DNA from: a virus
Strand: one strand, 5' to 3'
DNA: 64,000 nucleotides
Virus record (IMG/VR): IMGVR_UViG_3300005613_000020
Span: 32,885 to 96,884 of that record
Shown: positions 282-60,832 of the stretch, one piece after another
How positions within the stretch are numbered: position 1 is the first letter of the stretch
How the letters are laid out: each line of letters starts with the position of its first letter
Notes under the pieces: generated by a model
What the model was told of the DNA's origin: nothing
What the model saw: the letters and a program-made list of their open reading frames with translations, nothing else
The model's database searches: none
Translations under genes and position numbers: made by a program

Positions 282-517
282 CCCCTGTACCCCGCTTTGT
301 CAGAAATGCCATTGTACGCCTTAACACAATGAGGGCACATCACATTACCCATCATCTCGATACTACCACTGTCAGCTCTGAAAAATACCCTAGCGTTGTC
401 TTCTGTGATTCCACAAAGCGTTTTATACTTCTTCCCCTTAAATTGAATATGTACCTTACAGCTATCTAGTACAAGACAAAGACCGAAACGATAGTTAGTT
501 ACAAATACGTCTTCCAT
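278..517 (-). CDS. Small hypothetical protein, possible Zn-binding
   Basis: GAGGAG SD upstream; H...C...CPHC pattern. Confidence 0.65.
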   Translation of the reverse strand: MEDVFVTNYRFGLCLVLDSCKVHIQFKGKKYKTLCGITEDNARVFFRADSGSIEMMGNVMCPHCVKAYNGISDKAGYRG

Positions 518-544
518 ACTATCTCCTCACTTAAGGGCCTGTCA

Positions 545-571
545 GGGGGTAGAGATTGTAACTCTACCCCC
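545..571 (-). terminator. GC-rich hairpin (terminator or mRNA-stabilising)
   Basis: GGGGGTAGAG-7nt-CTCTACCCCC perfect 10-bp stem in intergenic space; no clear U-tract. Confidence 0.5.
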
Positions 572-602
572 AGTTATATAACATTCCCTGAGTGGTACTC
601 AG

Positions 603-764
603 CTATTTTGTAGGATCAATACTGAATGTATAGGTTTGTGGTACACAAGTCATGTCTTCCGTAGATCCACATTGAGGACAATTGAGATCCGTTCTAATAT
701 TGAATCCTTCTTTCAACTCAAGTATTGCTCCACACGATTTACACTGATACACATGAATAGGCAT
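603..764 (-). CDS. FmdB-like zinc-ribbon protein (53 aa, not in ORF track)
   Basis: Manual translation MPIHVYQCKSCG...CPQCGSTEDM, matching the FmdB MPxYxYxCxxCG...CPxCG pattern. Confidence 0.75.
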   Translation of the reverse strand: MPIHVYQCKSCGAILELKEGFNIRTDLNCPQCGSTEDMTCVPQTYTFSIDPTK

Positions 765-765
765 A

Positions 766-3276: not shown

Positions 3277-3460
3277 TTTCAGCGTTCTCCACGTTAGCTT
3301 CTCCAGCCTGCTTTTCGCGCTCTGCCTGTAGCATGGCTTTTACCTTCTGTTCTGTCGAGATCCTTGTAAGTAATTGAATAATTGCATCCACAGTAACGTT
3401 TTCGTTACAAGTATACTCCGCACTTCCGCTTTCCTTGTCATAATACACTGAAAAAATCAT
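3218..3460 (-). CDS. Small hypothetical protein
   Basis: GGGAGGG SD; follows hub gene. Confidence 0.65.
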   Translation of the reverse strand: MIFSVYYDKESGSAEYTCNENVTVDAIIQLLTRISTEQKVKAMLQAEREKQAGEANVENAENDIAKKARKEGKPKRSASK

Positions 3461-3480
3461 ATCTCTTCCCTCCCTATTAT

Positions 3481-8920: not shown

Positions 8921-10231
8921 CTATGCATATACCCCAACGGAATCTACTACCACGATTTCTGTACTCCTACAAATTATATCTAGAGGAATATTAACCAATG
9001 GAGAATCCGCAATCGCATGAGGAGCATTTCGTATCAAACATCCCATAGCGTCTCCTCCTATAGCGGGAGCACTAGGGGGAGTTGTAATAGTAATAGTATC
9101 ATTTGCCCCTCTTGTCAGAACTAGTTGTACTTGGAATCCCTTGTACACGCTAGTATAATCACCCTGTCTCAAAAGATCCAAAAATAGGCTAGCGTCTTCT
9201 ATATCAATACTAACCGATAAACCATATTCTTTCCTTCCAGGAATTAGCTCATAAGGAACTCTATGAGATCCTACATCATCTGTAACGTAGTATTTAGGCT
9301 CTACCGCGTTGCTGATATCTAGCTTAAACTCAGTTACTCTAGCAAATTCTGTTCCTGCAAGAGTAAGAACCCCGTAGGAAAAGTAGTAAGGTTCTGTAGT
9401 AGGACAATCAATTGTAGGCTTTACGATATCCGACGTGTACCATGGGGAAACATCGGTAGCATCCTTATCCTTATAACGCATGTCTCTAGCCTGTAAATCG
9501 TCAATACCAAAAGTTACAATTTCTCCCTGTCCAGCTGTAATTGAAGCCCTACTAACTTTGCACCCAACATATCGTCTCTGCAAACTAGAATTTCCGTCTG
9601 TATCAACATATGTTGTGTCAATTTGGATTGGTTTTAGATGTACTGACTCAATTGCAGTATGGGTAAATGGGGCTTCAACTTCGTTGCAAGTTTCCCCTGT
9701 TAGATGATCATTAGATAATGGATAATTTAGAACTAAAGTAGTAGTACCCCCACCAGAACTAATCTGTCTAACCTCTGCATTATCACCAGTGCCAATCTGA
9801 ATATAGTCATCATCAGCGTAATCAGTACCAGAAACAACTGTAATTGATGCGACCCCTCTCGCATGGGCTCCGTTTAGAGTTGATCCACCTCCTCCAACAA
9901 CATCAGTTCCTACAGATTTAAGTGAACCTATTGGAAGATACAAAGGCATACCATTAAGTAGTGTAATATCTCCAATAGAACCACTAAATGCAACCTTTCC
10001 TTTATGGGTAATAAACCAATTTCTCTTGGAATTTTCACCATAAGCCCACTTTGATGTAAAATCAAACTCTGGGTCTGGTAATGTAGCTGACTCAAAAATA
10101 CCAAAAATCCTAGTCATATAGTCTTCGTCAACTACTCTGTCTGCTGTCTCTACTCCGCTATGAAGTGAACCATCATCAAAAAATTGCTGTCCGTACGACA
10201 GGCTCCACATTTCTCCACGTATCAACGCCAT
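8921..10231 (-). CDS. Major tail tube protein with inserted beta domain
   Basis: YVGCKVSRASI, FKLDISNAVE, PGRKEYGLSV tube motifs; position before chaperone and TMP. Confidence 0.85.
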   Translation of the reverse strand: MALIRGEMWSLSYGQQFFDDGSLHSGVETADRVVDEDYMTRIFGIFESATLPDPEFDFTSKWAYGENSKRNWFITHKGKVAFSGSIGDITLLNGMPLYLPIGSLKSVGTDVVGGGGSTLNGAHARGVASITVVSGTDYADDDYIQIGTGDNAEVRQISSGGGTTTLVLNYPLSNDHLTGETCNEVEAPFTHTAIESVHLKPIQIDTTYVDTDGNSSLQRRYVGCKVSRASITAGQGEIVTFGIDDLQARDMRYKDKDATDVSPWYTSDIVKPTIDCPTTEPYYFSYGVLTLAGTEFARVTEFKLDISNAVEPKYYVTDDVGSHRVPYELIPGRKEYGLSVSIDIEDASLFLDLLRQGDYTSVYKGFQVQLVLTRGANDTITITTPPSAPAIGGDAMGCLIRNAPHAIADSPLVNIPLDIICRSTEIVVVDSVGVYA

Positions 10232-10350
10232 TCTTGTTTCCTCCTACGTCTTTTATCAGACTTTGGTTTATTTTCTTTGTGAATCTTATGCTTATATCCT
10301 TCCTCTTTATCCCTTTTACGTTCCCTCTTTTGCCACTTATCTATCCTCAT
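10222..10350 (-). CDS. Very basic 42 aa peptide (not in ORF track)
   Basis: GGAGG SD then MRIDKWQKRERKRDKEEGYKHKIHKENKPKSDKRRRRKQEWR. Confidence 0.55.
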   Translation of the reverse strand: MRIDKWQKRERKRDKEEGYKHKIHKENKPKSDKRRRRKQEWR

Positions 10351-10366
10351 AATCCTCCAAATTTAT

Positions 10367-10834
10367 TTAGGCTCCTCCAGTACACTCAACATATACTCCA
10401 TTAGATTCTAGTGAAACTCTAATATCTCCCTCCCAAACGCGGGCGGTATCGTCTGTAGATTCCATAAAACTAACCATTCTTACAAGCTGAAATTCGTCCA
10501 TATCGTGCTTGAAGTGATAACATATTCTAGTTATCTCCTGCTTCAAATCCCATAATCTTTGGCGACTTTTCATAGTATATATAGTTATCAAAACTGGAAT
10601 CTTTACATCCTTATAAGTCCAATTTCCTCTTTGTGTATCCTGCAATCCGGGAGTTTCAACTCTAACAGCACAAACATCTCCCATCTTGAGATTCATCTTA
10701 ATCTCTTCGTTTGGAGCTACAAATTGTGGCTTGGGGACTTCATTATTCAACCTTTCATCCCAATTCTCTTCGAGAAAATCCTTGAACGCCTCTTGTGCCC
10801 TTGCTTCCGCTGAATACGTTTCTTTATATGCCAT
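10367..10834 (-). CDS. Tail terminator/completion protein
   Basis: Size, position between adaptor and tube, alpha/beta pattern. Confidence 0.6.
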   Translation of the reverse strand: MAYKETYSAEARAQEAFKDFLEENWDERLNNEVPKPQFVAPNEEIKMNLKMGDVCAVRVETPGLQDTQRGNWTYKDVKIPVLITIYTMKSRQRLWDLKQEITRICYHFKHDMDEFQLVRMVSFMESTDDTARVWEGDIRVSLESNGVYVECTGGA

Positions 10835-15734: not shown

Positions 15735-16260
15735 TATTACCTCCCTTATGTACTAGGCTCGTTATTTTGCCTAGTTTTTCCGACACTAATTTCCTAATAA
15801 CCATAACTGCTTTATCTTCTACTGGCTTAACAATTTTATCGGTTTGCTTCCTCGGTACAAACAGGAATATAAATAGGAAAGCGAATATAACTAATTGCAT
15901 AATTAATCCCCATTCGGTTGCAAACCACGTTGGCCAAAACCATTTATGGTGCAGCCCTTGGGTACAATTCCATCCGGTTATAAAGAATAGTGCCCACTCA
16001 AAATCTGGTAACACCCCAAATAACATTCCCAACCAATATTTCTTTGCTTTTATTGCTAGGAATATTGACAATATAATACTAATAGAGATTACTGCTCCTG
16101 TTAACTCGGCGTCCATAGGGCCATGGAACAGTGTATATTTTCCATAGTTAAAAGAATCAAGGAAAAAATGCGACGCAAAAGCAAACGGTATTGTTAGATA
16201 CCATCTACGGCTAGCCTTATCAATTATGGCCCCAGCCATCATATGAACTGGCATAAACAT
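15712..16260 (-). CDS. Multi-pass membrane protein, possible metal-dependent hydrolase
   Basis: Four hydrophobic segments; H...SHFFLD...LPD...LH motifs. Confidence 0.7.
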   Translation of the reverse strand: MFMPVHMMAGAIIDKASRRWYLTIPFAFASHFFLDSFNYGKYTLFHGPMDAELTGAVISISIILSIFLAIKAKKYWLGMLFGVLPDFEWALFFITGWNCTQGLHHKWFWPTWFATEWGLIMQLVIFAFLFIFLFVPRKQTDKIVKPVEDKAVMVIRKLVSEKLGKITSLVHKGGNNEGWSEG

Positions 16261-16588: not shown

Positions 16589-17076
16589 TATATCAATCCC
16601 GTTACTACGACCTTTGCTGCGGATGACCCCGGTTGTCCTGTTGGCGGGGTAGCCCCAGATCCATATATACTTATTGTATCACCACTGTAAAATACATAAG
16701 AATGTGTTCCAGTGAACAAATCACCTGCTGCATTGTAAGCGCCAGCAGATCCCACTTTAGCCATCTCTAGGTTGCCGGAACTGTGGTAACAACCCAAAAG
16801 ATCGCCGACAGTAACTGAGATACTTAATCCTGTGAATGTTCTAACTGCCCCCGCTGCAACCGTACCTAATACCGCAAAAGACCTACACGTATAAGAACCG
16901 GAAGATCCATAAAAAGTACCTGTTTTAAGCCCGCCTGCATCAGCAAATGCATAAACCTGTATTGTACTGATAATTCCTGTTTCATTCGCCGGGTTATCCA
17001 CCAATACAGATGTTCCTCCAGGAAAAGTATAGCTCGCTCTATTTATAGCTGGTGACCCAATATCAATAGAAGACAT
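16588..17076 (-). CDS. Beta-rich putative structural protein
   Basis: G/S/T-rich; VTVGDLLG motif; coupled start and stop. Confidence 0.65.
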   Translation of the reverse strand: MSSIDIGSPAINRASYTFPGGTSVLVDNPANETGIISTIQVYAFADAGGLKTGTFYGSSGSYTCRSFAVLGTVAAGAVRTFTGLSISVTVGDLLGCYHSSGNLEMAKVGSAGAYNAAGDLFTGTHSYVFYSGDTISIYGSGATPPTGQPGSSAAKVVVTGLI

Positions 17077-17381
17077 TATATTTTCTTAGTTTCTGCCTTT
17101 TTCTCTATTTTGTCTTGTACCTCAATTCCAACCCAATCTGATTGCTTCTCATCAAGATACTCCCAAGATGATTTTACCTTGGATAGATGGCTTAGCATTA
17201 TTTTTTGCAAGTCGTTTAAAGTTGATGTCGGAGTAACTTTTACAAAATGTGTGTTACATGGCGTATCCTCGCCATCGACTACATAATCCTCATAGTGGGG
17301 CTCACCGATTTCCAAATAAACATCAAATCTTACCTGTAGTTTATCCGCGAGAAAGTCAACATCTGTAATAACAGCTCTCAT
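17076..17381 (-). CDS. Hypothetical protein
   Basis: GGAGG SD; coupled to neighbours. Confidence 0.65.
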   Translation of the reverse strand: MRAVITDVDFLADKLQVRFDVYLEIGEPHYEDYVVDGEDTPCNTHFVKVTPTSTLNDLQKIMLSHLSKVKSSWEYLDEKQSDWVGIEVQDKIEKKAETKKI

Positions 17382-17391
17382 TTATTACCTC

Positions 17392-17865
17392 CTATTCTGT
17401 CCACTCAACTACTAATCCAACTTGAACACTATAGAATACTAAACTATCACTATCTACGCTGGCTTCATCCCATTGTAGATCATAAGTTCCATTGCCAGTT
17501 ACCTCGCCCTTCACATCCACATTCCCCATTACAACATCCCCCCCATCGGTTGTTGATCCGTCAACTTGGATATCGTCGTCAAGAAAATTGATAGCATCGG
17601 TCCAAGATCCTGCTACGGTTTCTTTTACCTGTATTTCTTGAGCCCCATTAAGTTTATTGCCGGCGGCATTGGTATTCTCAACCTTCCTGTACTTAAATAT
17701 TGCTCTTACTCTATCAATATTAGCATAGCTCGGCAATCCAGAAACTGTAACACTCAATAAAGCAACATCTGATGCAGCATTGTTTACAGTTATACTAGCT
17801 TGTGATCCGGTACACCAAAATGGTTTTGATTTAGGTATCCTCTTACGCGGTCTTGAAACTGGCAT
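17392..17865 (-). CDS. Beta-rich putative structural protein
   Basis: SD present; jelly-roll-like composition. Confidence 0.65.
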   Translation of the reverse strand: MPVSRPRKRIPKSKPFWCTGSQASITVNNAASDVALLSVTVSGLPSYANIDRVRAIFKYRKVENTNAAGNKLNGAQEIQVKETVAGSWTDAINFLDDDIQVDGSTTDGGDVVMGNVDVKGEVTGNGTYDLQWDEASVDSDSLVFYSVQVGLVVEWTE

Positions 17866-17881
17866 AATTCACCTTCCTTTA

Positions 17882-20800
17882 TTAATATAGATCCTTAGTA
17901 ACCGCTCTGAAGTCCACCGTTCTTGTGGCGGTAACATCGGAGCTACATTGTATTGTAAATTTAAGAGCATGGCTTATCATGTTAAATTCAAAGTTTGGAT
18001 TTACATCACCAGCTCCTACGACATATTCAACCTTATCAATCAACCTATAATTACTACTATCAATCCTATTATATGCTTTTAGCGTTATAGTTCCGCCTTC
18101 TCCAGCAGTTTCCAGTTCTTCTAAATCAAAGTATATACTATAAGCATATTGGTCAGTCCTTGTAGCCGAAGTCGTGCTAATATCAGTTTCTGACGTATCG
18201 TTAGCCGTTGTCACACTATGAGTACTTATCTGAGTTACAACCGAAAGTCTATCTTTAAGATCTTCTAGTCTTTCTAGAACAGAGCCATCATCATCAGACG
18301 AAATTCCGCTAGAATCATATCCTGTAACAATAGTATCATACAAGTCGGGGGTTCCGTCAAACTCTACTCCTAACGCTGTACCAATAGCCGACATGGCCGA
18401 CTCTAGCGTAGTTTGGCTTCCGCCGAACATTGCCGGATCAAAAGTATTTGCTCCATCACATCCAAGAACGGCACAAACCGCTTGTACTGCCCCATCAAGG
18501 CTAGTTATTGCACCATTGCTAATATTAGTCCAGCCATCATAATCGTCCCCACCAACCAATGAGGTTAGGATTGCTCTAATCACCTCTGCTAAACTTACAC
18601 CGTTAGCCGGGTCAGCAGCTGCCGGGAATGAAGCAATACCATTTGTACCCCTAAGGTCCTCAATTATACTTTCAAGTCTTTCTGGAATGGAACCATCATC
18701 ATTCCTAGTAATATGGGAACTAGTCCATCCCTTGTTTAGTTTGCCATTTAACCAATCAAGTAGTGGTTGCTCGTAGATTAAAACAACATTATCAAAATGG
18801 AAATCCGTATTGGCATCAAGGCTTCCAAAGTTTAATCTGTCGATAAGGGCTGGATTCCACCCACCGCCGGTTCCATCTGGGGTACTTCTGAAATCAACGG
18901 AATAATAAGCTGATATAGCGCTTAGTTGAACATCCCAATATTTGTAATTGGTTGCATCGCTAACATCCTCCAATCTAACCTGGATGGTCGGAGTTCCCGT
19001 CGATGCCTTAGCTTGGAATACTACCGCGCTTATTTGGCCAAGTTCATAGGCATATCCAAATAGGTTTACATCAATACCTTTTCTAGCTTCACCGTCCCCC
19101 CCTGCTCCGACAGCAACCTTCATTGAGGTTGTACCGTATAGTGGAGAACCCTGTTCTCTAGTTATTGCGGAATTTCCAGTGCCGTCTGTCCATACCGCCT
19201 GCAACGCGGCATCGTTAATATATGATTCGAAAGCATCAAAAACTAGTATATTTCTTGTCGGCATCGAATCTGGATATCTACGCAATTCACTATGAGACCC
19301 AAACATAGTTGGAATTTGGAATGTCTGTCCGGCAATAGTCACCACAGCGCTTTCAAGTTTATACCTAACCAGATCACCCTGCTCCCAACTTGCTGATGGG
19401 AATGTATAGCTATAATGAGCATATCCATTGGCGACTGTCATGGCCTGCGACGATACAATGGCGTTCCAATCGGTATCAACACCCCTTCTGTATCTTTCAA
19501 TGGTTATTGTTGCGCTGGTAATTTCTCCTGATTGAACAACATCGCTATCTGGCCTCATGTTTAGAACAGATAGTGTTGCAATCTGCATGCTCGAACCGTC
19601 AACATTGGGGGAAGGATAACCAATAAATTCTGCCTTTATATAGGGCATGTCAAGAAGACTTCTTTGAGCAGTTGATCCATCAGCCCAAGTTTCCGCTGAT
19701 CCATCACCAACAAGAGCCTTGTATAGGGTTGTTCCAGTTCCGTCTGCTTCAAACCCAGTTCCCCCACCAGCAACAATTTGCATCGCAGCCTTTTCAGCCT
19801 CGTCCCTTTCAAGCATTGAACCATCAATATTCCCTACAACTGCACTTGAGTCATAAGCATTGTTGGCATTGTTATCCCCAATTATCCTCGCAACATCAAA
19901 AAGATTAAGGATTATATAAGAAACCCCTGATGCAACCGCATTTGGGAATCCGGGTTCAAATGTTAGCATGTCCGTTCCGTCATCAAAGTCACATATAGGT
20001 CTGGCTAGACCAGCATTTGCCCCATCAAGACAAACAAATACCGCGCCATTCCAATAATCATCTGCTTCCGTTCTTGAGGAATCAATAGCTGTGGTCGTAG
20101 TTCCTGCTCCATCAGTAGTTCCAGGAGTACCAAGAATTGATAGTATTCCCTCAAGTCGCTCTAGTACACTTCCATCATTGTTTGATACCACAGAACTTGA
20201 ATCCATGGCGTTATTAGCATTGTTAGCACCAATTGCACCTAAAACGGATGCTGCCAAATCGGTAACATTTGCACCATCTGTACCAAGAGCCGTAACCAAA
20301 CTTGGACTCCCATCATCTTCTAAACCAGTTCCAGTACCAGCTGGAGTAGCCCCCAAAGCTCCTTGAAGACCCCTTAAGAGATTAACTATAGTTGTAGTAG
20401 CAGCTGTTAGGTCAGAACTGTCATCTCGTTGTCCTACAACCGTATGTAAAGAATCATCAGGATCAGCAGGAGTCTGTCCAACGGTCTCCCTAATTGCCTT
20501 AAGATGTTCAACTAATGTATCCGTAGATGCTGGAGCAGTATCCATTGCTGGAGCAGCATCATCCCTCTGGCCTGAAATTGTATGCAGTGAATCATCCGGG
20601 TCAGATGGTGTTGCGCCAACTCTCTCAAGGATTGCCTTTGCAATGGATTCTAGGGACCAGCTACCAGGAGCTTGGTCCATTGCCGGGATTGCATCGGTCT
20701 TATTTCCAATTACATCCTTAGCTGTATAATTTCTTGTACTGTCAGCATTAGGTGGTCCCCCAACTTCAAGAAATACTGCAATATCTGGTATCTCTTGTTC

Positions 20801-33159: not shown

Positions 33160-33288
33160 TCCTAATTTCTCCTTTATTACACGCAAAAAAGTAGGACTCG
33201 CAGGCACCCTCCTATATAGAGTATTCCTACTATCCTACTCTTTACTTTTCTACTGTACCGCTATGCTTAGCTTTAACCCACTATACCA

Positions 33289-33317
33289 AGTATATCATAC
33301 TTTTTTTAGCGCGTCAA
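33289..33317 (-). promoter_or_regulatory. Sigma70/sigmaA-type promoter with extended -10
   Basis: TTGACG-17 bp-TATACT with TG just upstream of the -10; A-tract upstream. Confidence 0.8.
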
Positions 33318-33335
33318 CTTTTTTTCGTAGCTAAA

Positions 33336-33494
33336 TTACTCTAAATTCTCGGCTATTTCTCTCAATCTACTAGCTATTATTCTTGCTGTTGGATCGAGTA
33401 TAATAACGCACTCTATATCTCCGGTAAAAGTAGATCTTTTTAGATTATCTAATCCTTCTGCTAGCTCTAAAATATACTCTTTATCAGTCTTCAT
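33336..33494 (-). CDS. Small hypothetical protein (52 aa, not in ORF track)
   Basis: AAGGAG SD; MKTDKEYILELAEGLDNL... Confidence 0.6.
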   Translation of the reverse strand: MKTDKEYILELAEGLDNLKRSTFTGDIECVIILDPTARIIASRLREIAENLE

Positions 33495-33580
33495 TAAGCT
33501 CCTTTTCTGTCCTTAAAGAAGACCCTATTTGTTCGTAAGTCTTCACTTGTCTTCATCAGTCTTCAATGCTGTCTTCTTTA
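33487..33580. repeat. GTCTTC/GAAGAC repeat cluster
   Basis: GTCTTC at 33487, 33539, 33549, 33559, 33571; inverted copy at 33518. Confidence 0.7.
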
Positions 33581-41792: not shown

Positions 41793-42093
41793 CTCGTAAC
41801 CACCCTACTACCTGATCAAATACCCCTGCTCGTTTGATAAATGCTAGCGTTAATTCACTGCATACCCGGCAATCAGTTTCCGATATCTGTTCGTCAGAAA
41901 ATAAATAACTTCCCTTGTGAAATGCTTCATGAAGCACGTTTACAATTAAGTCATCGTTAGTTCCTTTACCATCTACATAAATCTTATTCATGGTAGGCGG
42001 AGCTTGCCCTTGCAAACCATGCCTTTCCATAATATCGTAGTCAAGAATTATCTCTACTTCTCTACCACCAAACGGAAAATATTTCCTTGGCAT
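41701..42093 (-). CDS. HExxH zincin-like metallopeptidase
   Basis: VLHEAFH...E motif. Confidence 0.65.
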   Translation of the reverse strand: MPRKYFPFGGREVEIILDYDIMERHGLQGQAPPTMNKIYVDGKGTNDDLIVNVLHEAFHKGSYLFSDEQISETDCRVCSELTLAFIKRAGVFDQVVGWLRDGENTEGIEKEYPKCDCERDTEKRGSNIRD

Positions 42094-42114
42094 AATTGTA
42101 CTCCTATTCTGATC

Positions 42115-51051: not shown

Positions 51052-51347
51052 CCTATATTTCCCCCTTGGGGATATTTTGCCCAATCCATATGACCTTTTC
51101 TCTTTCGTGCGCTGTAGTTCATGCATTCTGGTATTTCATGCTCAATACATCCTTGAGTTATCTTTCGTAATCTTATATACAAATTCTCACAACTACACAT
51201 CCCTCTAATAACATCATCTTCAAACGGGGTTACCATCCTCTTGTCTTCCCCAAACCAATGGTCCTCGTCAGTAGGTTCATTGAACAAGCAATCGTATCTG
51301 TTACAAAAAATCATTTTTTCCTCCTTTTCAAATTCTATTAGATTCAA
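51048..51347 (-). CDS. Cys-rich hypothetical protein
   Basis: CNRYDC...C.C...C. Confidence 0.6.
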   Translation of the reverse strand: MNLIEFEKEEKMIFCNRYDCLFNEPTDEDHWFGEDKRMVTPFEDDVIRGMCSCENLYIRLRKITQGCIEHEIPECMNYSARKRKGHMDWAKYPQGGNIG

Positions 51348-51358
51348 CTAACTCATTT

Positions 51359-51991: not shown

Positions 51992-52140
51992 CTTTCAACT
52001 CCTTGACTAATTTCTCGCTTGCATCCACTTTTCGGTAAATAATGAATCATATCCTGGAATGACTTTGTTGTTCCCCCCTCTTTTTCTGTTCTATACTCTA
52101 GTAACTCGTGTATGATTTCAACTAATTTACTACTATTCAT
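51988..52140 (-). CDS. Small hypothetical protein (50 aa, not in ORF track)
   Basis: GGAGGAG SD; ATGA overlap with MTase. Confidence 0.5.
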   Translation of the reverse strand: MNSSKLVEIIHELLEYRTEKEGGTTKSFQDMIHYLPKSGCKREISQGVER

Positions 52141-52150
52141 TTTTCTCCTC

Positions 52151-53724: not shown

Positions 53725-54219
53725 CTAGTAACTCCTATCGACCAAACTTCTCATGTACTCAGCTAAGCACAAAGCATCAAAACAATGTTGACTTTGTTTC
53801 TTTAGCAATATTTCCCAATCCAAATCATATTTCGTAATAGCATATCTTTTGATTATGTCTTTGTCAACTCTAGCTGTACCTAAAATAGCTTTCTTCCATA
53901 CCAGATTCTGAACTGATTCATACTGTATTTTGCTGTCATGCAGATGCTTACAAACAAGCGCGTCAACTTCGCTCAACATCATAGTTGTCTTAGGATTCTG
54001 TATCATGACCGGAGCTTCTACTCCTATCAAACCAAGCTCTCCGTACTGTTTTACGAATGCTGGAAGACAAGCAATCCACTCATCAATCATCTTGAATATC
54101 CTCATTTGCCAATATTTCTCTTTCTTATCTCCTACAATCTGAAGGAAATGGGGGATCTCTCCGTCTAGCACTACAAGAGATAGCTGTTTTGAATCTACGT
54201 CAATACCACCATGTAGCAT
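53725..54219 (-). CDS. RuvC-like Holliday junction resolvase
   Basis: GIDVDS, GVEAP, WKKAILG, DALCLA. Confidence 0.75.
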   Translation of the reverse strand: MLHGGIDVDSKQLSLVVLDGEIPHFLQIVGDKKEKYWQMRIFKMIDEWIACLPAFVKQYGELGLIGVEAPVMIQNPKTTMMLSEVDALVCKHLHDSKIQYESVQNLVWKKAILGTARVDKDIIKRYAITKYDLDWEILLKKQSQHCFDALCLAEYMRSLVDRSY

Positions 54220-54748
54220 CTTCGATTACTCTCCTTACAGCTTCCCCTGCTTCTTTGTACCTTTCCTCTGGCGAACCTCTCAAGATGACCACTTCATCTT
54301 CTACATTTGCGACATACTCTTCTATCGCGCACTCTACTATCAACCTCTCTACTTCATCTAGTCTCCTAGCTCCGTTATCTATCATAGGTATATCTTCTAT
54401 CATAGTCCATAGAGCTAAGTTATATCGGTAACTTCCTAGTACTTTCTCTACGTCTTCTAATAAGTCTGGTCTGTTCAGCTTTGTGTAAATGATGGAATGA
54501 TATAAATGAGAATCAGTAACTAGACCAATATTTCCGGATGCTCCAGCCATATTAGATGTATAATCTTCATAAAACTTCTGTCTCTTTGTGATTTCTAATT
54601 GGTCTATATCTTTTCCTATTTCCATCCCACGGGCTATACAATCAGCGGCATACTCATGAACATACCTTAAAGGAAAATCCTCTACTAATAGCTTCGCTAT
54701 TGTTGTCTTCCCTGTACACGGGGCTCCTATCATTGCTATTCTAATCAC
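54200..54748 (-). CDS. P-loop kinase/ATPase (NadR/AAA_28-like)
   Basis: GAPCTGKTT, EYA, DNGAR, GSPEER; start moved to GTG 54748. Confidence 0.75.
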   Translation of the reverse strand: MIRIAMIGAPCTGKTTIAKLLVEDFPLRYVHEYAADCIARGMEIGKDIDQLEITKRQKFYEDYTSNMAGASGNIGLVTDSHLYHSIIYTKLNRPDLLEDVEKVLGSYRYNLALWTMIEDIPMIDNGARRLDEVERLIVECAIEEYVANVEDEVVILRGSPEERYKEAGEAVRRVIEDATWWY

Positions 54749-54758
54749 TTTATCTCTA

Positions 54759-54828
54759 TTATACCGGCTGAAGTCAGCCGCTTTGCTACCTTTCTCCTGC
54801 AAATTCGTAGTGGAATGATTTGTTATAT
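54759..54828 (-). mobile_element. attC-like site 3 (degenerate)
   Basis: ATATAAC 3 nt after stop of 54832 ORF; AAATCATTCCA...TTTGC/GCAAA...GCGGCTGACTTCAGCC-GGTATAA. Confidence 0.5.
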
Positions 54829-54831
54829 AAA

Positions 54832-55047
54832 TTACTCCTTTTCAGCCAGATCTAGTATATCAAAATATTTGAGTTCACCAGACTGGTCTATACGATATAG
54901 CGCCGCTTCACTAGGATGTGTATCAAGGTATTTTGATACCTTCCAGTGGTCACGGACAGCTTGGCGAAACTTGTCATCCGTACCTCCTAGGCGAACTGCG
55001 TCACATATAGAAAGACCCCATCTTTCCCACTCTGGTGGATTATTCAT
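54832..55047 (-). CDS. Small hypothetical protein (putative cassette gene)
   Basis: GAGG SD; flanked by attC-like sites. Confidence 0.65.
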   Translation of the reverse strand: MNNPPEWERWGLSICDAVRLGGTDDKFRQAVRDHWKVSKYLDTHPSEAALYRIDQSGELKYFDILDLAEKE

Positions 55048-55064
55048 TCAACACCTCTAAAGCC

Positions 55065-55119
55065 ACATAAGGTCAAATTAACCCTCCGCTTGCGGTCGGA
55101 CTTCAATTAGTTTTTATGG
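55065..55119 (-). mobile_element. attC-like site 2 (degenerate)
   Basis: CCATAAA-AACT-AATTGAA...CCGCAAGCGG...TTAATT-TGAC-CTTATGT; L boxes pair with one extrahelical base. Confidence 0.55.
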
Positions 55120-55313
55120 AAAAGGGGCAATTGTGAGCTTCGCCTTTACATAAGTCTGGTCTTACATATCCCTAGCCAATTTGGGATGACAGCCTATACT
55201 GTCTAGGATTTTCCCCTCGCTCAGTATCACAGGCGGATACAACTTTCTCTAGACATCACCCTATCGATGTTGGCATCCTGTGATCTCCTCATCCTATGCC
55301 CCTTTCTCCATAA
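55114..55313 (-). ncRNA. Candidate structured non-coding RNA (ORF-less cassette)
   Basis: 16-17 nt terminal inverted repeat and several internal stems; no substantial ORF. Strand assumed from surrounding genes. Confidence 0.5.
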
Positions 55314-55347
55314 CGTTTAAGTTCAGCCGCCATTCTTATTGTTATAT
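55308..55347 (-). mobile_element. attC-like site 1 (left arm shortened)
   Basis: ATATAAC at stop of 55347 ORF...GGCGGCTGAACTTAAAC-GTTATGG. Confidence 0.5.
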
Positions 55348-55583
55348 TATACCTTATTTTCAATTACATATCCTAAAAAATCTGCTATCCCATACCCAGA
55401 TTTACAACTGGAATGGGGTTCTATTATTCTTGGTGGCATTCCAATATTAAGTCTTGCTAATTTATTCTCTGACCCAAGGGAAATATATACCAAACACGTT
55501 TTAGCTATATCCTCGCATGTTTCTCCGCTTGTATATACTTCTCCGCATAACCTACATTTATATTTAAATTTAGCTATTTTCAT
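55347..55583 (-). CDS. Small Zn-binding hypothetical protein
   Basis: YKCRLCG...HxxC..GYGIADFLG. Confidence 0.7.
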   Translation of the reverse strand: MKIAKFKYKCRLCGEVYTSGETCEDIAKTCLVYISLGSENKLARLNIGMPPRIIEPHSSCKSGYGIADFLGYVIENKV

Positions 55584-56054
55584 CTACATATTCCTCTCTT
55601 CTACTACTACCTGTCTTCTAGACAACTCTCTAGATAGTGCTACTATTTGTAATTCGTATATCTTAGAAAATCTATCCATCATTGAAACTTCAGCTCCCAT
55701 CCTATCCATCAACGATTTAAGAGTAAATAAGTCTGGATTTGCCGCATAAGCTTCGGATAACAACGCATTTTGGGTCTTTGACTTCTTCTCTAGTGGAACT
55801 GATGTCTTTCTCAACTCGTCTTCATATAAAGACTTTACTCCAGTATATCTTGTCTCTGCTATTGCTAGCTGGTACATAACATATCCTCTATACGCTGTTA
55901 ACTTCATCATGTATTTTCCAAGATCATCAATACTAAGAATAGTAGGATCTGTCGGAAAATCTATCTCTTCCCCAAATTCCTTTGGTCGCTTAAGGTTAAT
56001 TGCTGATTTATGAGCTTCTATAATATCATCAAATGGATATCCTACATCAGACAT
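55584..56054 (-). CDS. Coiled-coil protein, possible UvsY-like recombination mediator
   Basis: Helical; ends ALSRELSRR; near RecA and exonuclease. Confidence 0.55.
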   Translation of the reverse strand: MSDVGYPFDDIIEAHKSAINLKRPKEFGEEIDFPTDPTILSIDDLGKYMMKLTAYRGYVMYQLAIAETRYTGVKSLYEDELRKTSVPLEKKSKTQNALLSEAYAANPDLFTLKSLMDRMGAEVSMMDRFSKIYELQIVALSRELSRRQVVVEERNM

Positions 56055-56916
56055 TCGGCATTACCACCTTTCCAATACTAGCCCTCTCACAAGCACTTGA
56101 ATAGTAACATCTGCTTATTGTACATGGACTACACTTTGTTGGAATTTGACCAGACTTTATGCACTTCAGTACATAATTCATCTTCTTGAATATCTTGTCT
56201 AACAACTTCTTACTTTCGTATCTACCCCCCTCTGAAGACTCTGAAATAACATTTCCTTCATCGTCAAGTGTAACCAAAAAATATAAGTCGCCCTGATTAT
56301 CCTTACACTCATAAATCAACCATCCTTCTTTCATCTCTAGTGCATACATATACAAAACTAGTTGTTCTAAGTGCTCTTGTTTTGGACCGTCTTTTCTGAT
56401 AGATCTGTATCCATTTGCGTTTATTGATTTGATTTCTCCTACATATAGAATCCCATCTATATCAATAATTGAATCAAGTCTTCCTTTCATAGGTGGATTG
56501 TCTATTGAAACCTGCTTCTCTGATGATGTTTGTAAACCAGCTTCTTCCATCTCTGTCTGTAACCTCTCATGAACATAATCACCGTTTTCCATCCTAGTAA
56601 GTCCTAGAACATCTGGGGGTCCAGTAAGATTCAGAGACATCAAATAGAGTACCCTAGCCTGATACCCACAAGCACTAGCTGCAAAGTACTTGAATTCGCT
56701 AGCCTTTCTAACTGGTCTTGTCCTTTTCTTTATCTTCTTCTCTCTATACTTGTGAATTGCATCTTTCAAAATAGTTGCTCTTCCTACTATCTCTTTATCA
56801 TCTATTTCTTTTTTTACGCCCTTTGGCTTTGATTTCTTTCTCATGATAGACGGTTTTATTTTCATTGTAGTAGGCTTTTTCTTGTACGTCTGTAGCAATC
56901 CAGTCAACTCGTTCAT
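56047..56916 (-). CDS. Cas4-like PD-(D/E)XK exonuclease
   Basis: GDYVHE, GRLD, EIKS, QLVLYM, C-terminal Cys cluster. Confidence 0.8.
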   Translation of the reverse strand: MNELTGLLQTYKKKPTTMKIKPSIMRKKSKPKGVKKEIDDKEIVGRATILKDAIHKYREKKIKKRTRPVRKASEFKYFAASACGYQARVLYLMSLNLTGPPDVLGLTRMENGDYVHERLQTEMEEAGLQTSSEKQVSIDNPPMKGRLDSIIDIDGILYVGEIKSINANGYRSIRKDGPKQEHLEQLVLYMYALEMKEGWLIYECKDNQGDLYFLVTLDDEGNVISESSEGGRYESKKLLDKIFKKMNYVLKCIKSGQIPTKCSPCTISRCYYSSACERASIGKVVMPNV

Positions 56917-57260
56917 AGTACCCCCTTAGTTCTAGGCATAAATCCGCCTCTTCTTACTTCAGCCGACTCATACCAATGCTCTATAAATCCTAATATCTTC
57001 TGTGTCACTTCTTCCTTGTTCTTCATCTCGGTATCGTATATTCGTAGTATGGGTATGTTGTACTTCTGCATTATGAAATTATCTCTTTTTCTATCTCGAC
57101 CCTTCATATGAGTAACCTTTGAATCAGCTTCAAATCCTATGTGACAATCATACTCATAACAGTCTAGAGAATAGGGCTCTACCTGAACCTCAGTCTCTAC
57201 CATCAATCCTATTTCATTCAGTATCTCTACAAGCTTCTTGTGATTCTTTGATATCATCAT
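56913..57260 (-). CDS. Vsr/DUF559-like endonuclease
   Basis: YSLDCY, EAD...H, DRKRD, ILRI. Confidence 0.75.
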   Translation of the reverse strand: MMISKNHKKLVEILNEIGLMVETEVQVEPYSLDCYEYDCHIGFEADSKVTHMKGRDRKRDNFIMQKYNIPILRIYDTEMKNKEEVTQKILGFIEHWYESAEVRRGGFMPRTKGVL

Positions 57261-58228
57261 TCTGATTCGGCTACCTCTTTTGACAATTTCTTGAAACTCT
57301 TTTCGTTGTCTAGAAAGTAATCCTCTACGGCTTGTCTTCCAAGCATCTTTCCGTTTGGAAAATCCTCAAACTGATAGTATGGACCCTTCTGAGTTATGAT
57401 ACCTAGATCAATAGCTCGTAGTATCGTCGATAGTATCAGATCCAACTTACCAGAAAACAGAAATGGTATCTCTGTCATAAGCTGAGGTCTATGAGTCTTA
57501 TTCTTCTCTGTAAACATCCTCATGTGGAATCCTAGCTTGTTCTTGTCTTTGTCCTTGATAAACGGACCCTTACTAACCCACAAAATGATTCCCGCAAAAT
57601 GTCTAAGACCTCTACCTCCAGGTTGGTTCTTTCCAGTCATTCCAGCCCACATTCCTATAGAATCTCTTTGCTGGTTTATCAGAAGTACGATGGTATCTCC
57701 TGTTATTTCTTGGGTTATCTTCCTAAGACCTTGATTTATCAACCTTGCCTGAGTACCTACCTGCTTCTGCTCCATATCAGCATCTTTCTCAGATAGTGGT
57801 AGAAGACCCGCTAAACTATCTACAACAACTAATCCAGTTCGTGCCTTTATCAACTCAACAGCTACATCAATTGCTTCTTCTCCAGATGATGTATCTGAAT
57901 AAATAAGATTTTCTGTATCTACTCCTATATTATTAGCCCACACAGGATCAAATGAATGCTCTACATCTATCAATGCTGTGGTCAATCCTGCTCTCTGAGC
58001 AGATGCTATTACTAACTGTGACAGGAATGACTTTCCTCCTGATTCCTCTCCAGAGAAACACGTTATTCGTCTAAAAGGCAATCCTCCACCAAGTATTTCA
58101 TCAAGAGGAGGAACCTCTGTTCTAAGACGCTTTATGATAAGTTCTTCGTCTGATCCTGCCATCATCCTAGCTGATTTAACAGCCTTAGAAACATGATTCA
58201 TTATGTCTTGCATATCGCTATCTGTCAT
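57257..58228 (-). CDS. recA: RecA recombinase
   Basis: LGGGLP, GEESGGKS, IDVEH, VVVDSLA, QARL, INQQR, PGGRGLRH; start taken at MTDSD. Confidence 0.92.
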   Translation of the reverse strand: MTDSDMQDIMNHVSKAVKSARMMAGSDEELIIKRLRTEVPPLDEILGGGLPFRRITCFSGEESGGKSFLSQLVIASAQRAGLTTALIDVEHSFDPVWANNIGVDTENLIYSDTSSGEEAIDVAVELIKARTGLVVVDSLAGLLPLSEKDADMEQKQVGTQARLINQGLRKITQEITGDTIVLLINQQRDSIGMWAGMTGKNQPGGRGLRHFAGIILWVSKGPFIKDKDKNKLGFHMRMFTEKNKTHRPQLMTEIPFLFSGKLDLILSTILRAIDLGIITQKGPYYQFEDFPNGKMLGRQAVEDYFLDNEKSFKKLSKEVAESE

Positions 58229-58460
58229 TTGCCATTTCCTCTTTCGCCTTGGCGATAGCTGCGCGAGCAATATGCACCATTCCTTCTGGATTAGTATAGT
58301 CAGGCTTATTTGTTATCTGCTCCAATGCCTTAACCAGCTCATTTATGAGAGATTGCTTCTCTTCACACCATTGGCAATATGGGATACTATCTTGGTCCAT
58401 CATTGAATCAAACATGCTATGTTTCATAAATCCTCCTAATCTGCCTTCTTTCCTACCCAT
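58218..58460 (-). CDS. Small hypothetical protein
   Basis: GGAGG before MKHSM; ARAAIAKAK motif. Confidence 0.6.
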   Translation of the reverse strand: MGRKEGRLGGFMKHSMFDSMMDQDSIPYCQWCEEKQSLINELVKALEQITNKPDYTNPEGMVHIARAAIAKAKEEMANDR

Positions 58461-60832
58461 CTTTGATCAACCTCTACATCAGGATTAAGCACGAGTCCGT
58501 CCAATTCCTTGATAGGCTTCTTCATTTCAGACAGTATGATCTCTTTTGCTTCCTCTACGCAATCATCTGACACTTCAGCTAAGATAGCATCATGATGTGT
58601 AAACAACACATTAGCGTCCATATTTTTAAACCGATTATCTATATCAATCAACGAAAAATGTAATTTGTCTGAAGTACTTCCTTGAACCCTAGCATTAACT
58701 GCTTGTCTAAGCATTTCCCTAACTTGTGGCATCTTCATATTTGCGTTATCAGGAAAATCAAAATGTCTCCTTCTTCCAAAACAATTCTCTACATACGTAT
58801 TTTGTAAGCAATACATCCTAGTCTCATTAATCCATTGACTGTACTTACGAAACTCCAAAAAGTAGTTCCTTATAATATCCTTAGCCTCTTGTACGCTACA
58901 TTTCAACTCGTCAGATAATCCAAATTCTGTCATACCATACGCGATACCGAAGTTTACTTTCTTTGCTCTTCTTCTATACTCTGGATCTGCTACCTCTCGT
59001 TTCTTCTTTTCATCCCAGTGAGTTGGTGAATTCAAAACTGTTCTAGCAACTACATCATGCAAGTCTTCTGATACAGCTTCCTTGAATACCTCATCATTTG
59101 AGTAATATGCAGCTACCCACAATTCCGCCTGAGAGTAATCAGCAGCTATTATCTTGTATCCAGGAGGTGCAAAAATAAGACCTCTCATAAATTCCGTGTC
59201 AGGCATGTTCTGCAAGGTAGGATCTCCATAAGTAACCCTTCCTGTAGTTGCTCCATTAATACGCGCTATAGGATGAACTCTATTGTTGGAATCTAGAAAC
59301 TGATACAATCCTGTTGTGTCATCTCCTAAGAAGGATAGCTCTTTTTCTTTTTTCTTGAAAGCCTTCAAGTCAACTATCATTAAATGTTCTATACTATCTT
59401 TCTTTGTTCTACTAAGAAGCTCTGTTAGCACATCTGATGTTACCTGCGGAACCCCCTTTGGTGTCTTGCTTATTACTGGAAGACCCATATCTGAAAATAA
59501 CTCCTTACTAAGTTGCGACGTAGACCTAATATTAATATCAGGATCTTCCATACGTTCTTTTATTACAGACTCTAACTCCAAATTTTCCTGTACTGTCATC
59601 TCATATGCTTCTTCTAGCCTATCTGTATCAATCAGTACTCCACGTAGCTCTGCTTCTAGAAACACTCTTATCAATGGTTCAGTAAACTTCCAATAGAACT
59701 TGTCTAAACCTTCTAACGCTACCTGCCTATACATCTCCCTACCAACCCTACTTGTAGCATCTACATCTCTTGCAAGATAACTCCACAATAAATCAGGATC
59801 AACTGTTGAAAATCCAAACTTCTTCTCGTTCCTTGGTATCTTGTCAGTAAAATCATCCTTGTATGGAGTCATGTTCGTGTACTTCTTTGTTGCAAAGTCT
59901 AAACTGTGTGGTTCGTCCTCATGAACCAAGTGATGTAATAGACTCGTATCTAAAATTCTTCCTTTAAGTTCAAACCCAAACTTGTGTTTTAGGAACCTCA
60001 TATCAAACTTTATATTTGCGCCAATCCATGTATACTCATTACTAAATATTCTTTCTAAACCGTCCATTATTGTTTTTGTGTCTTCTTCGTTCCATGTTTG
60101 GCAACAATGCTTACCAAGTAATGGAACTACGTACCCTGTTCTTGGCTTTGGAGAAAATCCAATCGCTAAAACTTCACTAGTAATCCAACTAAATCCTGAT
60201 GTTTCTAAGTCAACAGATACTATCTTTGTGCTATCTAGCTGTTCTTCTATCCATTGAATGTCATCAGGAAATATAACTTTGTAGTCTGTGTCTTCAGCCT
60301 CTCGTTCTCCGTTCACATATACAGCTGCGCTATTAAAATCGTCTAGTGCTTTGCCGTACAACTTCTGATCTCTCAATATTGCCGCCGGGTGTATCGTTGA
60401 AATTAGTGGTACATCAGGAAATTCAGACCAAGACTCTTGTAGTCCGTGCTTCTTTGTTATACCTCCCTCAATTCCAGTAGAAGCATAAAAAGCATAGTTA
60501 CCAAGAGATATTATCACCTTTGGGTTAAGCCCCTCAATCTTCTTCTTGACGTTATCCATGCAGCAATCAACGTATGGGTAATCGGCCTTTTTCGACTTTG
60601 GCCGACACCCCAATACGTTTACTATATAACAATCATCTCGTGAAAGACCAGCCTTCTCTAGTATCTCGTGCAACAAGTGTCCAGCCCTTCCTATGAATGG
60701 AACTCCTTCTTTCTCCTCATTATATCCAGGACTCTCACCAAGTATGAGGATAGGAGCATTTACATCTCCATGTCCAGGCATGTTGTTTATGTTCGATTCA
60801 GTATTAAGCGGACACTTAAAGCACTTTGACAT
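58436..60832 (-). CDS. polA: Family A DNA polymerase with N-terminal family-4 uracil-DNA glycosylase domain and 3'-5' exonuclease
   Basis: CxxC, GESPG, PFIGRAG, CRP, HPAA (UDG4); DLET, NIKFD, YLARD (exo); DYSQAE, AKKVNFGIAYG, HD (Pol motifs A, B, C). Confidence 0.95.
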   Translation of the reverse strand: MSKCFKCPLNTESNINNMPGHGDVNAPILILGESPGYNEEKEGVPFIGRAGHLLHEILEKAGLSRDDCYIVNVLGCRPKSKKADYPYVDCCMDNVKKKIEGLNPKVIISLGNYAFYASTGIEGGITKKHGLQESWSEFPDVPLISTIHPAAILRDQKLYGKALDDFNSAAVYVNGEREAEDTDYKVIFPDDIQWIEEQLDSTKIVSVDLETSGFSWITSEVLAIGFSPKPRTGYVVPLLGKHCCQTWNEEDTKTIMDGLERIFSNEYTWIGANIKFDMRFLKHKFGFELKGRILDTSLLHHLVHEDEPHSLDFATKKYTNMTPYKDDFTDKIPRNEKKFGFSTVDPDLLWSYLARDVDATSRVGREMYRQVALEGLDKFYWKFTEPLIRVFLEAELRGVLIDTDRLEEAYEMTVQENLELESVIKERMEDPDINIRSTSQLSKELFSDMGLPVISKTPKGVPQVTSDVLTELLSRTKKDSIEHLMIVDLKAFKKKEKELSFLGDDTTGLYQFLDSNNRVHPIARINGATTGRVTYGDPTLQNMPDTEFMRGLIFAPPGYKIIAADYSQAELWVAAYYSNDEVFKEAVSEDLHDVVARTVLNSPTHWDEKKKREVADPEYRRRAKKVNFGIAYGMTEFGLSDELKCSVQEAKDIIRNYFLEFRKYSQWINETRMYCLQNTYVENCFGRRRHFDFPDNANMKMPQVREMLRQAVNARVQGSTSDKLHFSLIDIDNRFKNMDANVLFTHHDAILAEVSDDCVEEAKEIILSEMKKPIKELDGLVLNPDVEVDQRWVGKKAD

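Follow-up and report, generated by a model that had tools for sequence, protein, structure and literature searches.

An orphan, inverted-repeat-closed non-coding insert between two small phage genes

The ORF-less element of 200 nt described here is a real, orphan, non-coding insert that is closed by an inverted repeat. It lies in an IMG/VR virus record of 96,884 bp, which has direct terminal repeats and an estimated completeness of 100%; bases 32885–96884 of this record make up the 64-kb window, i.e., the whole stretch of DNA that was analysed. An initial annotation of this stretch had proposed a multi-stem RNA whose family it did not recognise, and a multi-stem RNA that would belong to a new family finds no support in the statistics presented below. 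Rather than a new RNA machine, the element is most likely a leader or hairpin of the ordinary mRNA kind, brought in together with a small accessory gene.

The element and its gene neighbourhood

The sequence features quoted in the initial annotation are all present at 55114–55313, including the pairing ends and all eight internal complementary pairs that it listed, and its description of an ORF-less stretch on the minus strand, the same strand as nearly all genes, agrees with what we find (Table 1). No ORF longer than 21 codons occurs on the coding strand of the element, which fits the earlier remark that there is no sizeable ORF, and stops are frequent in all six frames. Recoding of a frame with four TGA and one TAG codons was considered and rejected, as the neighbouring genes all read cleanly under table 11. 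The element is also more GC-rich than its flanks, as had been noted, and together with the spacer and the p71 gene that follow it (values in Table 1) it stands against 32–39% in the adjacent genes and 39.9% in the window.

Table 1. Positions (window coordinates) of the element, its parts and the neighbouring genes.
Feature	Position	Strand	Remarks
ORF-less 200-nt element	55114..55313	-	single-copy, 45.5% GC, closed by terminal inverted repeat (TIR)
Closing helix, 5' arm, TTATGGAGAAAGGGGCA	55313-55297	-	A-rich run, then GGGGC
Closing helix, 3' arm, TGCCCCTTTTCCATAA	55129-55114	-	GC-rich base, then UUUU
Long imperfect hairpin	55225..55284	-	ATCACAGG/CCTGTGAT plus GGATGC(C)AAC/GTTGTATCC, one G-U
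Three abutting short hairpins	55147..55203	-	GACAG/CTGTC, ATCCC/GGGAT, ATGTAAG/CTTATGT (the last with two wobble pairs)
Imperfect direct repeat, 21 nt, upstream copy	55310..55330	-	15/21 identical, common GCGGCTGA
Imperfect direct repeat, downstream copy	54761..54781	-	contains a hairpin of 7 bp (54765-54780), located between p71 and the kinase gene
RecA gene	57257-58270	-	
PD-(D/E)XK nuclease	56047-56916	-	
p78, small upstream gene	55347..55583	-	phrog_16725, unknown function; complete, TAA end 33 nt before the element
p71, 71-aa orphan gene directly downstream of the element	54832..55047	-	44.0% GC
Spacer between element and p71, 66 nt	55048..55113	-	p71 Shine-Dalgarno AGAGGTG at 55052-55058; 43.9% GC

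The terminal arms form a 16-bp helix that includes one G-U pair and has a single bulged A. The inner part of this closing helix is GGGGCA/UGCCCC, with the A-rich run before it and UUUU after it, and the 3' arm with its UUUU is terminator-like except for a “loop” of 167 nt; the GC-rich base and U-tract appear to resemble a terminator whose loop has grown to this length. Four wobble pairs are formed along the minus strand (G8-U193, G40-U75, U147-G166, and G148-U165), and these function as pairs on the minus strand only. The dinucleotide TA is found at both ends of the element; it is self-palindromic and belongs to the inverted repeat, so that a target duplication is indistinguishable from the TIR. 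A direct repeat of 21 nt (71% identical) brackets the unit formed by the element and p71.

On the minus strand, which carries almost all genes, the order is RecA, p115, the PD-(D/E)XK nuclease, p156, p78, a gap of 299 nt with the element, p71, an AAA_28 kinase, a RuvC-like protein, and ribonucleotide reductase (RNR), the last three corresponding to the downstream nucleotide-metabolism genes that had been mentioned earlier. The phage is novel, with no close cultured relative; its UDG-exonuclease-PolA fusion protein reaches at most 28% identity to GenBank phage polymerases and its RecA at most 36% identity to GenBank phages. The DNA polymerase itself (58436–60832, minus strand, 798 aa) joins a uracil-DNA glycosylase-superfamily part to a 3'-5' exonuclease and a family A polymerase. 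GC skew is uniformly negative across the genome, the minus strand being G-rich genome-wide, and was uninformative when an origin of replication was considered. The “kinase” ORF of 200 aa is called from TTG 54802, with the Pfam AAA_28 match starting at residue 21, and its start is probably ATG 54745, which gives MIGAPCTGKT and an N-terminal P-loop; this start would leave a spacer of 86 nt after p71 that contains the 7-bp hairpin CGGCTGA-CT-TCAGCCG followed by TATAAT.

When only ORFs of at least 55 aa are counted, 12 gaps of at least 100 nt are found in the window, and most of these, read by eye, hold small Shine-Dalgarno-led (SD-led) ORFs, several of them zinc-ribbon-like. Apparent gaps with SD-led ORFs of less than 55 aa are located at window positions 470–765, 1261–1433, 3332–3480, 41793–42114, 51127–51358, and 51992–52150, and several of these small ORFs show CxxC...CxxC zinc-ribbon patterns and are missed by length-filtered ORF lists. 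A truly non-coding gap of 299 nt is uncommon in this genome, which gives a weak argument for function or for a recent origin of the element.

In and beside the gap, consensus scans found neither a convincing sigma-70 promoter nor a canonical terminator; a scan for canonical terminators over 54000–56500 gave no terminator-like site, and promoter and terminator signals showed no enrichment over shuffles in the surrounding 40 kb. A perfect TATAAT does overlap the stop codon of p78, at 33 nt upstream of the element, without a −35 or TG partner. Since the element has neither promoter nor terminator of its own, the default expectation is that it is transcribed within the long minus-strand message. 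Elsewhere in the window, the best sigma-70-type promoter is found at 33289–33317 (minus strand) in the gap 33208–33577, with TTGACG, a 17-nt spacer, and TATACT preceded by a TG; it suggests that the host uses canonical sigma-70 promoters and Shine-Dalgarno sequences.

Folding statistics and known RNA families

The whole 200 nt fold to −66.7 kcal/mol on the minus strand (z of −4.10, with none of 200 shuffles as good) and to −59.7 kcal/mol on the plus strand (z of −3.58), and the better fold of the minus strand is partly compositional because that strand is G-rich throughout the genome. The 166-nt interior without the terminal helix has a z of only −1.37, with 19 of 200 shuffles as good, which is not significant. 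The fold signal of the whole element comes mainly from the 16-bp terminal helix; among 400 dinucleotide shuffles of the gap (299 nt), 2 attain the energy of this helix. The shuffle test that the initial annotation had suggested for its multi-stem RNA hence comes out positive for the whole element and the terminal helix and negative for the interior: the inverted repeat, and perhaps one of the hairpins, depart moderately from chance, and the “multi-stem” interior is not statistically supported.

Among the internal substructures, the long imperfect hairpin is the sole one with modest support (55224–55286, 63 nt, z of −2.38, 4 of 200 shuffles). The three abutting hairpins at 55147–55203 are not significant alone (z of −1.71, 13 of 200 shuffles), and the spacer toward p71 has no significant fold (z of −0.33). 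The frequency of the minimum free energy (MFE) structure in the ensemble is 0.0003. At the level of the 64-kb window, the closing helix is the best long-range duplex among approximately 4,700 seeded on the minus strand, with −28.9 kcal/mol, followed by runners-up at −27.7 and −27.3 kcal/mol in a continuous distribution of energies. When 200-nt windows are scanned with a correction for GC, the residual of the element is −2.99 sd, and unoptimised coding windows reach −3.3.

A search of the whole window with Rfam 15 at gathering thresholds gave 0 matches, and at E-values up to 10 over 54950–55450 nothing was matched inside the element, so that the Rfam check proposed earlier yields no family even at this permissive level. 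The matches obtained outside the element were noise, namely cHP at 15.2 bits and an NsiR4-like match at 13.9 bits, the latter on the other strand. ARAGORN found no tRNA in the window. The complete genome lacks a reverse transcriptase (RVT_1), a tyrosine integrase (PF00589), the TnpB TNB domain (PF07282), Y1 transposase (PF01797), IS110 transposase (PF01548), Ro60/TROVE, and RtcB.

These absences bear on several RNA types for which the element was considered. A retron msr/msd RNA was rejected for lack of the reverse transcriptase, and a bacterial or phage Y RNA, a type that has a Ro60/Rsr (TROVE) partner and a tRNA-like module, for lack of TROVE, RtcB, and any Rfam Y RNA match. An IscB/TnpB omega-RNA or IS110 bridge RNA was rejected as well, given that the flanking p78 and p71 lack such domains and that PF07282, PF01797, and PF01548 are absent; the HEARO model is unmatched in the element even at an E-value of 10, and a PATE acting in cis has no transposase partner proteins in the genome. 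A group I intron, a type marked by a conserved P3-P9 core, is contradicted by the lack of an Intron_gpI match and by the flanking genes: p78 is full-length against phrog_16725 and ends in TAA, and p71 starts at the MNNPPEW of its homologue. Because p78 is complete and the p71 start is the same as that of the homologue, the element interrupts no gene and is not an intron. The ribozyme, decoy, or antitoxin RNA suggested in the initial annotation finds no backing in an Rfam match (E-values up to 10), in a partner protein encoded by the genome, or in the folding of the interior.

Outside the window the same genome does hold a genuine HEARO/omega-RNA (RF02033), which matches the full model with 90.9 bits against a gathering score of 83 (18229–18449, minus strand, on contig L009, which also holds the other features given in this paragraph). 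The HEARO RNA is directly upstream of an IscB-like ORF of 416 aa (16916–18166, minus strand; RRXRR 3.7e-62 and HNH 1.5e-11), and the two constitute a phage-borne RNA-guided nuclease module, with no Y1 TnpA in the genome. The locus (16916–18449) is approximately 70 kb from the element and has no sequence in common with it. The 16–20 nt just upstream of the HEARO RNA have no second match in the genome, and a guide link of this omega-RNA to the element was rejected, as no match was found with up to 3 substitutions and a 12-base look-alike with one indel near the p71 Shine-Dalgarno is, by eye, at chance level. An RlaP-like ORF of 119 aa (18415–18774; RNA-repair-associated Pol-beta family) adjoins the HEARO RNA, and three tRNA genes, all on the minus strand, are found for Ala-tgc, His-gtg, and Pro-tgg at 10582–10655, 15881–15955, and 15961–16039.

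Relatives of the phage and a variable site

The element has no second copy in its own genome by blastn-short or by a covariance model built from its one sequence (R1), no blastn match among GenBank phages or PLSDB plasmids, and no match in IMG/VR when exact patterns (the TIR pair and two internal 19–20-mers) were scanned for. A 20-mer of the TIR has one match in 185,579 GTDB genomes, in a Sphingomonas MAG, with nothing common beyond the 20-mer. Relatives were sought through the flanking proteins p78, p71, RecA, PolA, and p156, which yielded only three contigs (L002, L003, and L004), and the element is absent from all three by BLAST and by the covariance model. The match L005 from a metagenome scan, of 21 residues, was spurious, and tblastn of p78, p71, and p156 found none among GenBank phages. 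For p71 there is one homologue among 5.8 billion protein clusters (P0002), which is 75% identical, shares the start MNNPPEW, and is carried by a Logan contig of 4,995 nt.

The closest relative, L002, which is also the sole informative one, is a syntenic IMG/VR contig of 30 kb, in which the homologues of RecA (48% identity), p115 (49%), the PD-(D/E)XK nuclease (30%), p156 (44%), the RuvC-like protein (36%), and RNR (41%) follow in the same order. It lacks the element, p71, and the kinase at the syntenic spot. After its p156 homologue there is instead an unrelated ORF of 79 aa, a 32-nt gap, and then a frame of 398 aa (9106–10302, plus strand). An HNH-type motif (CxxC...HH...N...CxxC) lies in the N-terminal ~235 residues of this frame, and its C-terminal part is the RuvC-like protein; the frame is a fusion, or else two genes that no stop codon separates. 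The presence of an HNH-like ORF where our phage has the element and p71 makes this a variable hot spot and marks it as one for homing endonucleases and accessory genes, occupied by p78, the element, p71, and the kinase here and by different accessory or selfish genes in L002. A pseudogene remnant was rejected, since six-frame reading together with tblastn and tblastx against the L002 site genes left no trace in the element; the sole significant tblastn match to these genes is the RuvC-like gene.

The “cassette” of the initial annotation is consistent with a spot that differs between the phage and L002. Mobility itself is not supported, with a single copy in the genome, none in L002, L003, or L004, no blastn match in GenBank phages or PLSDB, and no exact-pattern match in IMG/VR or, beyond the one isolated 20-mer, in GTDB.

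Competing explanations and comparison with known systems

Our preferred, and tentative, reading is that the element is a non-coding leader which was acquired with p71 and acts through its long helix, in cis, on the polycistronic message; this reading retains, from the options listed in the initial annotation, that of a cis-regulator, and we hold it as a possibility short of a probable one. Together with the orphan p71 the element would make up a small accessory (“moron-like”) unit, in which it is the non-coding portion at the 5' side. The unit is situated in a variable hot spot between recombination genes (RecA, the PD-(D/E)XK nuclease, p156, and p78) and nucleotide-metabolism genes (the kinase, the RuvC-like protein, and RNR). 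Transcribed within the long minus-strand polycistronic mRNA, its ends would close into the 16-bp helix with a GC-rich base and UUUU around a loosely structured interior, if the predicted helix forms in vivo. Such a helix could serve as a double-stranded processing site of the RNase III type, as a barrier to 3' exonucleases, or as a weak attenuator, and each of these roles would insulate the genes up to and including p78 from p71 and those that follow it. RNase III sites are double-stranded helices of roughly two turns, and cleavage of the closing helix by this enzyme is pure inference.

Several observations speak for this cis-acting leader. The element is non-coding and lies on the strand of all neighbouring genes, and the lack of its own promoter or canonical terminator makes co-transcription the default. 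The four wobble pairs and the better fold of the minus strand (−66.7 vs. −59.7 kcal/mol) fit a role at the RNA level and are partly explained by the G-rich strand. Of the long-range duplexes in the window the closing helix is the best, and 2 of 400 shuffles equal it. The element, spacer, and p71 are alike in composition (44–45.5% GC vs. 32–39% in the neighbours). In L002, the place of the element, p71, and kinase is taken by just the 32-nt gap and the HNH-like ORF fused to or abutting the RuvC-like gene, and p71 has its own Shine-Dalgarno, with a start 66 nt past the element that is conserved in the homologue. Against the leader stand an interior that folds no better than shuffles, with the very low MFE frequency given above, coding windows with similar GC-corrected fold scores, other long-range duplexes within 1–2 kcal/mol of the closing helix, and a 167-nt “loop” far beyond canonical terminators. 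No homologue was found in the collections searched, so conservation and covariation lend no support.

A functionless element, i.e., a neutral scar or spacer left by recombination in the accessory-gene hot spot (the remains of a lost gene or the product of illegitimate recombination), is doubtful when taken alone and yet nearly as likely as the cis-acting leader. On this account the repeat and the hairpins are the upper tail of chance, which agrees with the interior z of −1.37, with the residual of −2.99 that coding windows exceed at −3.3, with the continuous energies of long-range duplexes, with the single-copy and orphan nature of the element, and with a site that varies between relatives. 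Phage genomes are compact, however, and most other gaps of at least 100 nt hold small SD-led ORFs, which makes a non-coding gap of 299 nt unusual; the terminal helix, which brackets most of the gap, is matched by only 2 of 400 gap shuffles, and there is no protein-level trace of a decayed gene, either by tblastn and tblastx against the L002 site genes or behind the stops in six frames. An element that is mobile at the DNA level seems unlikely. It could be a foldback resembling a MITE, with 16-bp TIRs and a possible TA target duplication, or a 167-nt insertion into the loop of a former terminator hairpin (A-tract, GGGGC...GCCCC, U-tract), mobilised by a host transposase. MITEs are defined by TIRs of at least 10–15 bp, a size of 50–800 bp, and no transposase ORF (PMC11602168), and the element falls within these bounds with arms of 16 bp (one mismatch, which is a G-U at the RNA level, and one 1-nt indel), 200 bp, and a longest ORF of 21 codons. 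TA flanks both ends, the syntenic site of L002 lacks the element, and selfish elements abound in the genome, with IscB/HEARO here and an HNH-like ORF at the site in L002. Opposed to this are the single copy in the phage genome and the lack of a related one in the collections that were searched: the TIR pair has no match in IMG/VR, its 20-mer has one match in 185,579 genomes with no further similarity, and blastn finds nothing in plasmids (PLSDB) or phages (GenBank). The TA is itself part of the palindrome, which leaves a target duplication inseparable from the TIR, and only ~0.01% of viral sequences are reported to carry MITEs (PMC11602168).

We consider it rather improbable that the element is a free-standing, trans-acting structured RNA of a new class, such as a ribozyme, protein decoy, or anti-defence RNA. 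The whole-element z of −4.1, the GC enrichment without an ORF, the paired ends as in many stable RNAs, and the presence of other RNA genes in the genome (three tRNAs and the HEARO omega-RNA) would be in keeping with it, but there is no Rfam match at E-values up to 10, the interior is not significantly structured, the element is without its own promoter or terminator, partner proteins (RT, integrase, TnpB, Y1 or IS110 transposase, Ro60, RtcB) are absent, and no homologue was found in the collections searched. The bolder proposal that it is the founding member of a new phage structured-RNA class, forming with p71 a two-part accessory module in a homing-endonuclease hot spot and working as a decoy or regulator with p71 or as a small ribozyme, is quite improbable in our estimate. 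A degenerate integron-like attC site or array spanning 54759–55583 has very little to recommend it and is largely refuted. An imperfect palindrome adjoins a small promoterless ORF and an imperfect direct repeat brackets the unit, as such a site would have it, but the complete genome has no tyrosine recombinase (PF00589), the ends of the element do not fit the RYYYAAC/GTTRRRY cores, the bracketing repeat does not recur elsewhere, and the element, with its 200 bp, exceeds the 57–141 bp that are typical of attC sites.

If the element is only a helix or leader acting in cis, it matters little, as one more structured intercistronic RNA together with gene turnover in a hot spot, here seen in a phage lineage without cultured relatives. 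It would matter more if covariation were seen throughout the interior in relatives, which would make it a new class of phage RNA that goes with an orphan protein. In practical terms, nearly all of the apparent “multi-stem” fold comes from a single terminal inverted repeat.

Two known kinds of intercistronic structure come close to the element, namely the hairpins at which RNase III processes polycistronic phage mRNAs, such as the T7 R sites, and the stem-loops that stabilise mRNAs. The element is like both in lying between cistrons on the coding strand without its own promoter or terminator, and in its long imperfect helix of ~16 bp, or ~22 bp with an adjacent 4–5 bp, that includes a bulge and an internal loop, in a geometry that is predicted only. 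It is unlike the known sites, which are compact hairpins of ~60 nt, in that the helix closes an interior of 167 nt and the element is not repeated at other gene junctions of the genome. With intrinsic (rho-independent) terminators it shares the A-rich run, the GGGGC/GCCCC stem base, and the UUUU directly after the 3' arm, whereas its loop measures 167 nt instead of 3–8 nt and the consensus scan is empty. As a ~200-nt multi-stem RNA candidate in a phage with one genuine HEARO it recalls the HEARO/IscB omega-RNA (RF02033), from which it differs in having no model match at an E-value of 10, no adjacent IscB gene, and no sequence in common with the real locus.

Prokaryotic and viral MITEs (PMC11602168) are similar to the element in length (200 bp), lack of an ORF, TIRs of ~16 bp, possible TA flanks, and intergenic position, and differ from it in that the element is single-copy, has no related copy in the searched collections, and is accompanied by no encoded helper transposase. 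PeSLs, found in T4-type phages, are a conserved promoter-plus-stem-loop motif with many repeats per genome (PMC2839356, PMC4122927), whereas the 21-nt repeat that flanks our unit is 71% identical and is not joined by a convincing promoter, and no 9-mer is common to three or more of the 12 gaps. Neither the bracketing 21-mer nor its hairpin recurs elsewhere in the genome, and the direct repeat may well be chance, so that there is no solid support for a PeSL-like shuffling mechanism. The likeness to phage morons and to the PeSL cassettes of T4-type phages (PMC2839356, PMC4122927) is found in the arrangement as a whole, with a small ORFan and its non-coding flank in a hyperplastic spot between core genes, a p71 unit that the nearest relative lacks, and borders marked by short direct repeats.
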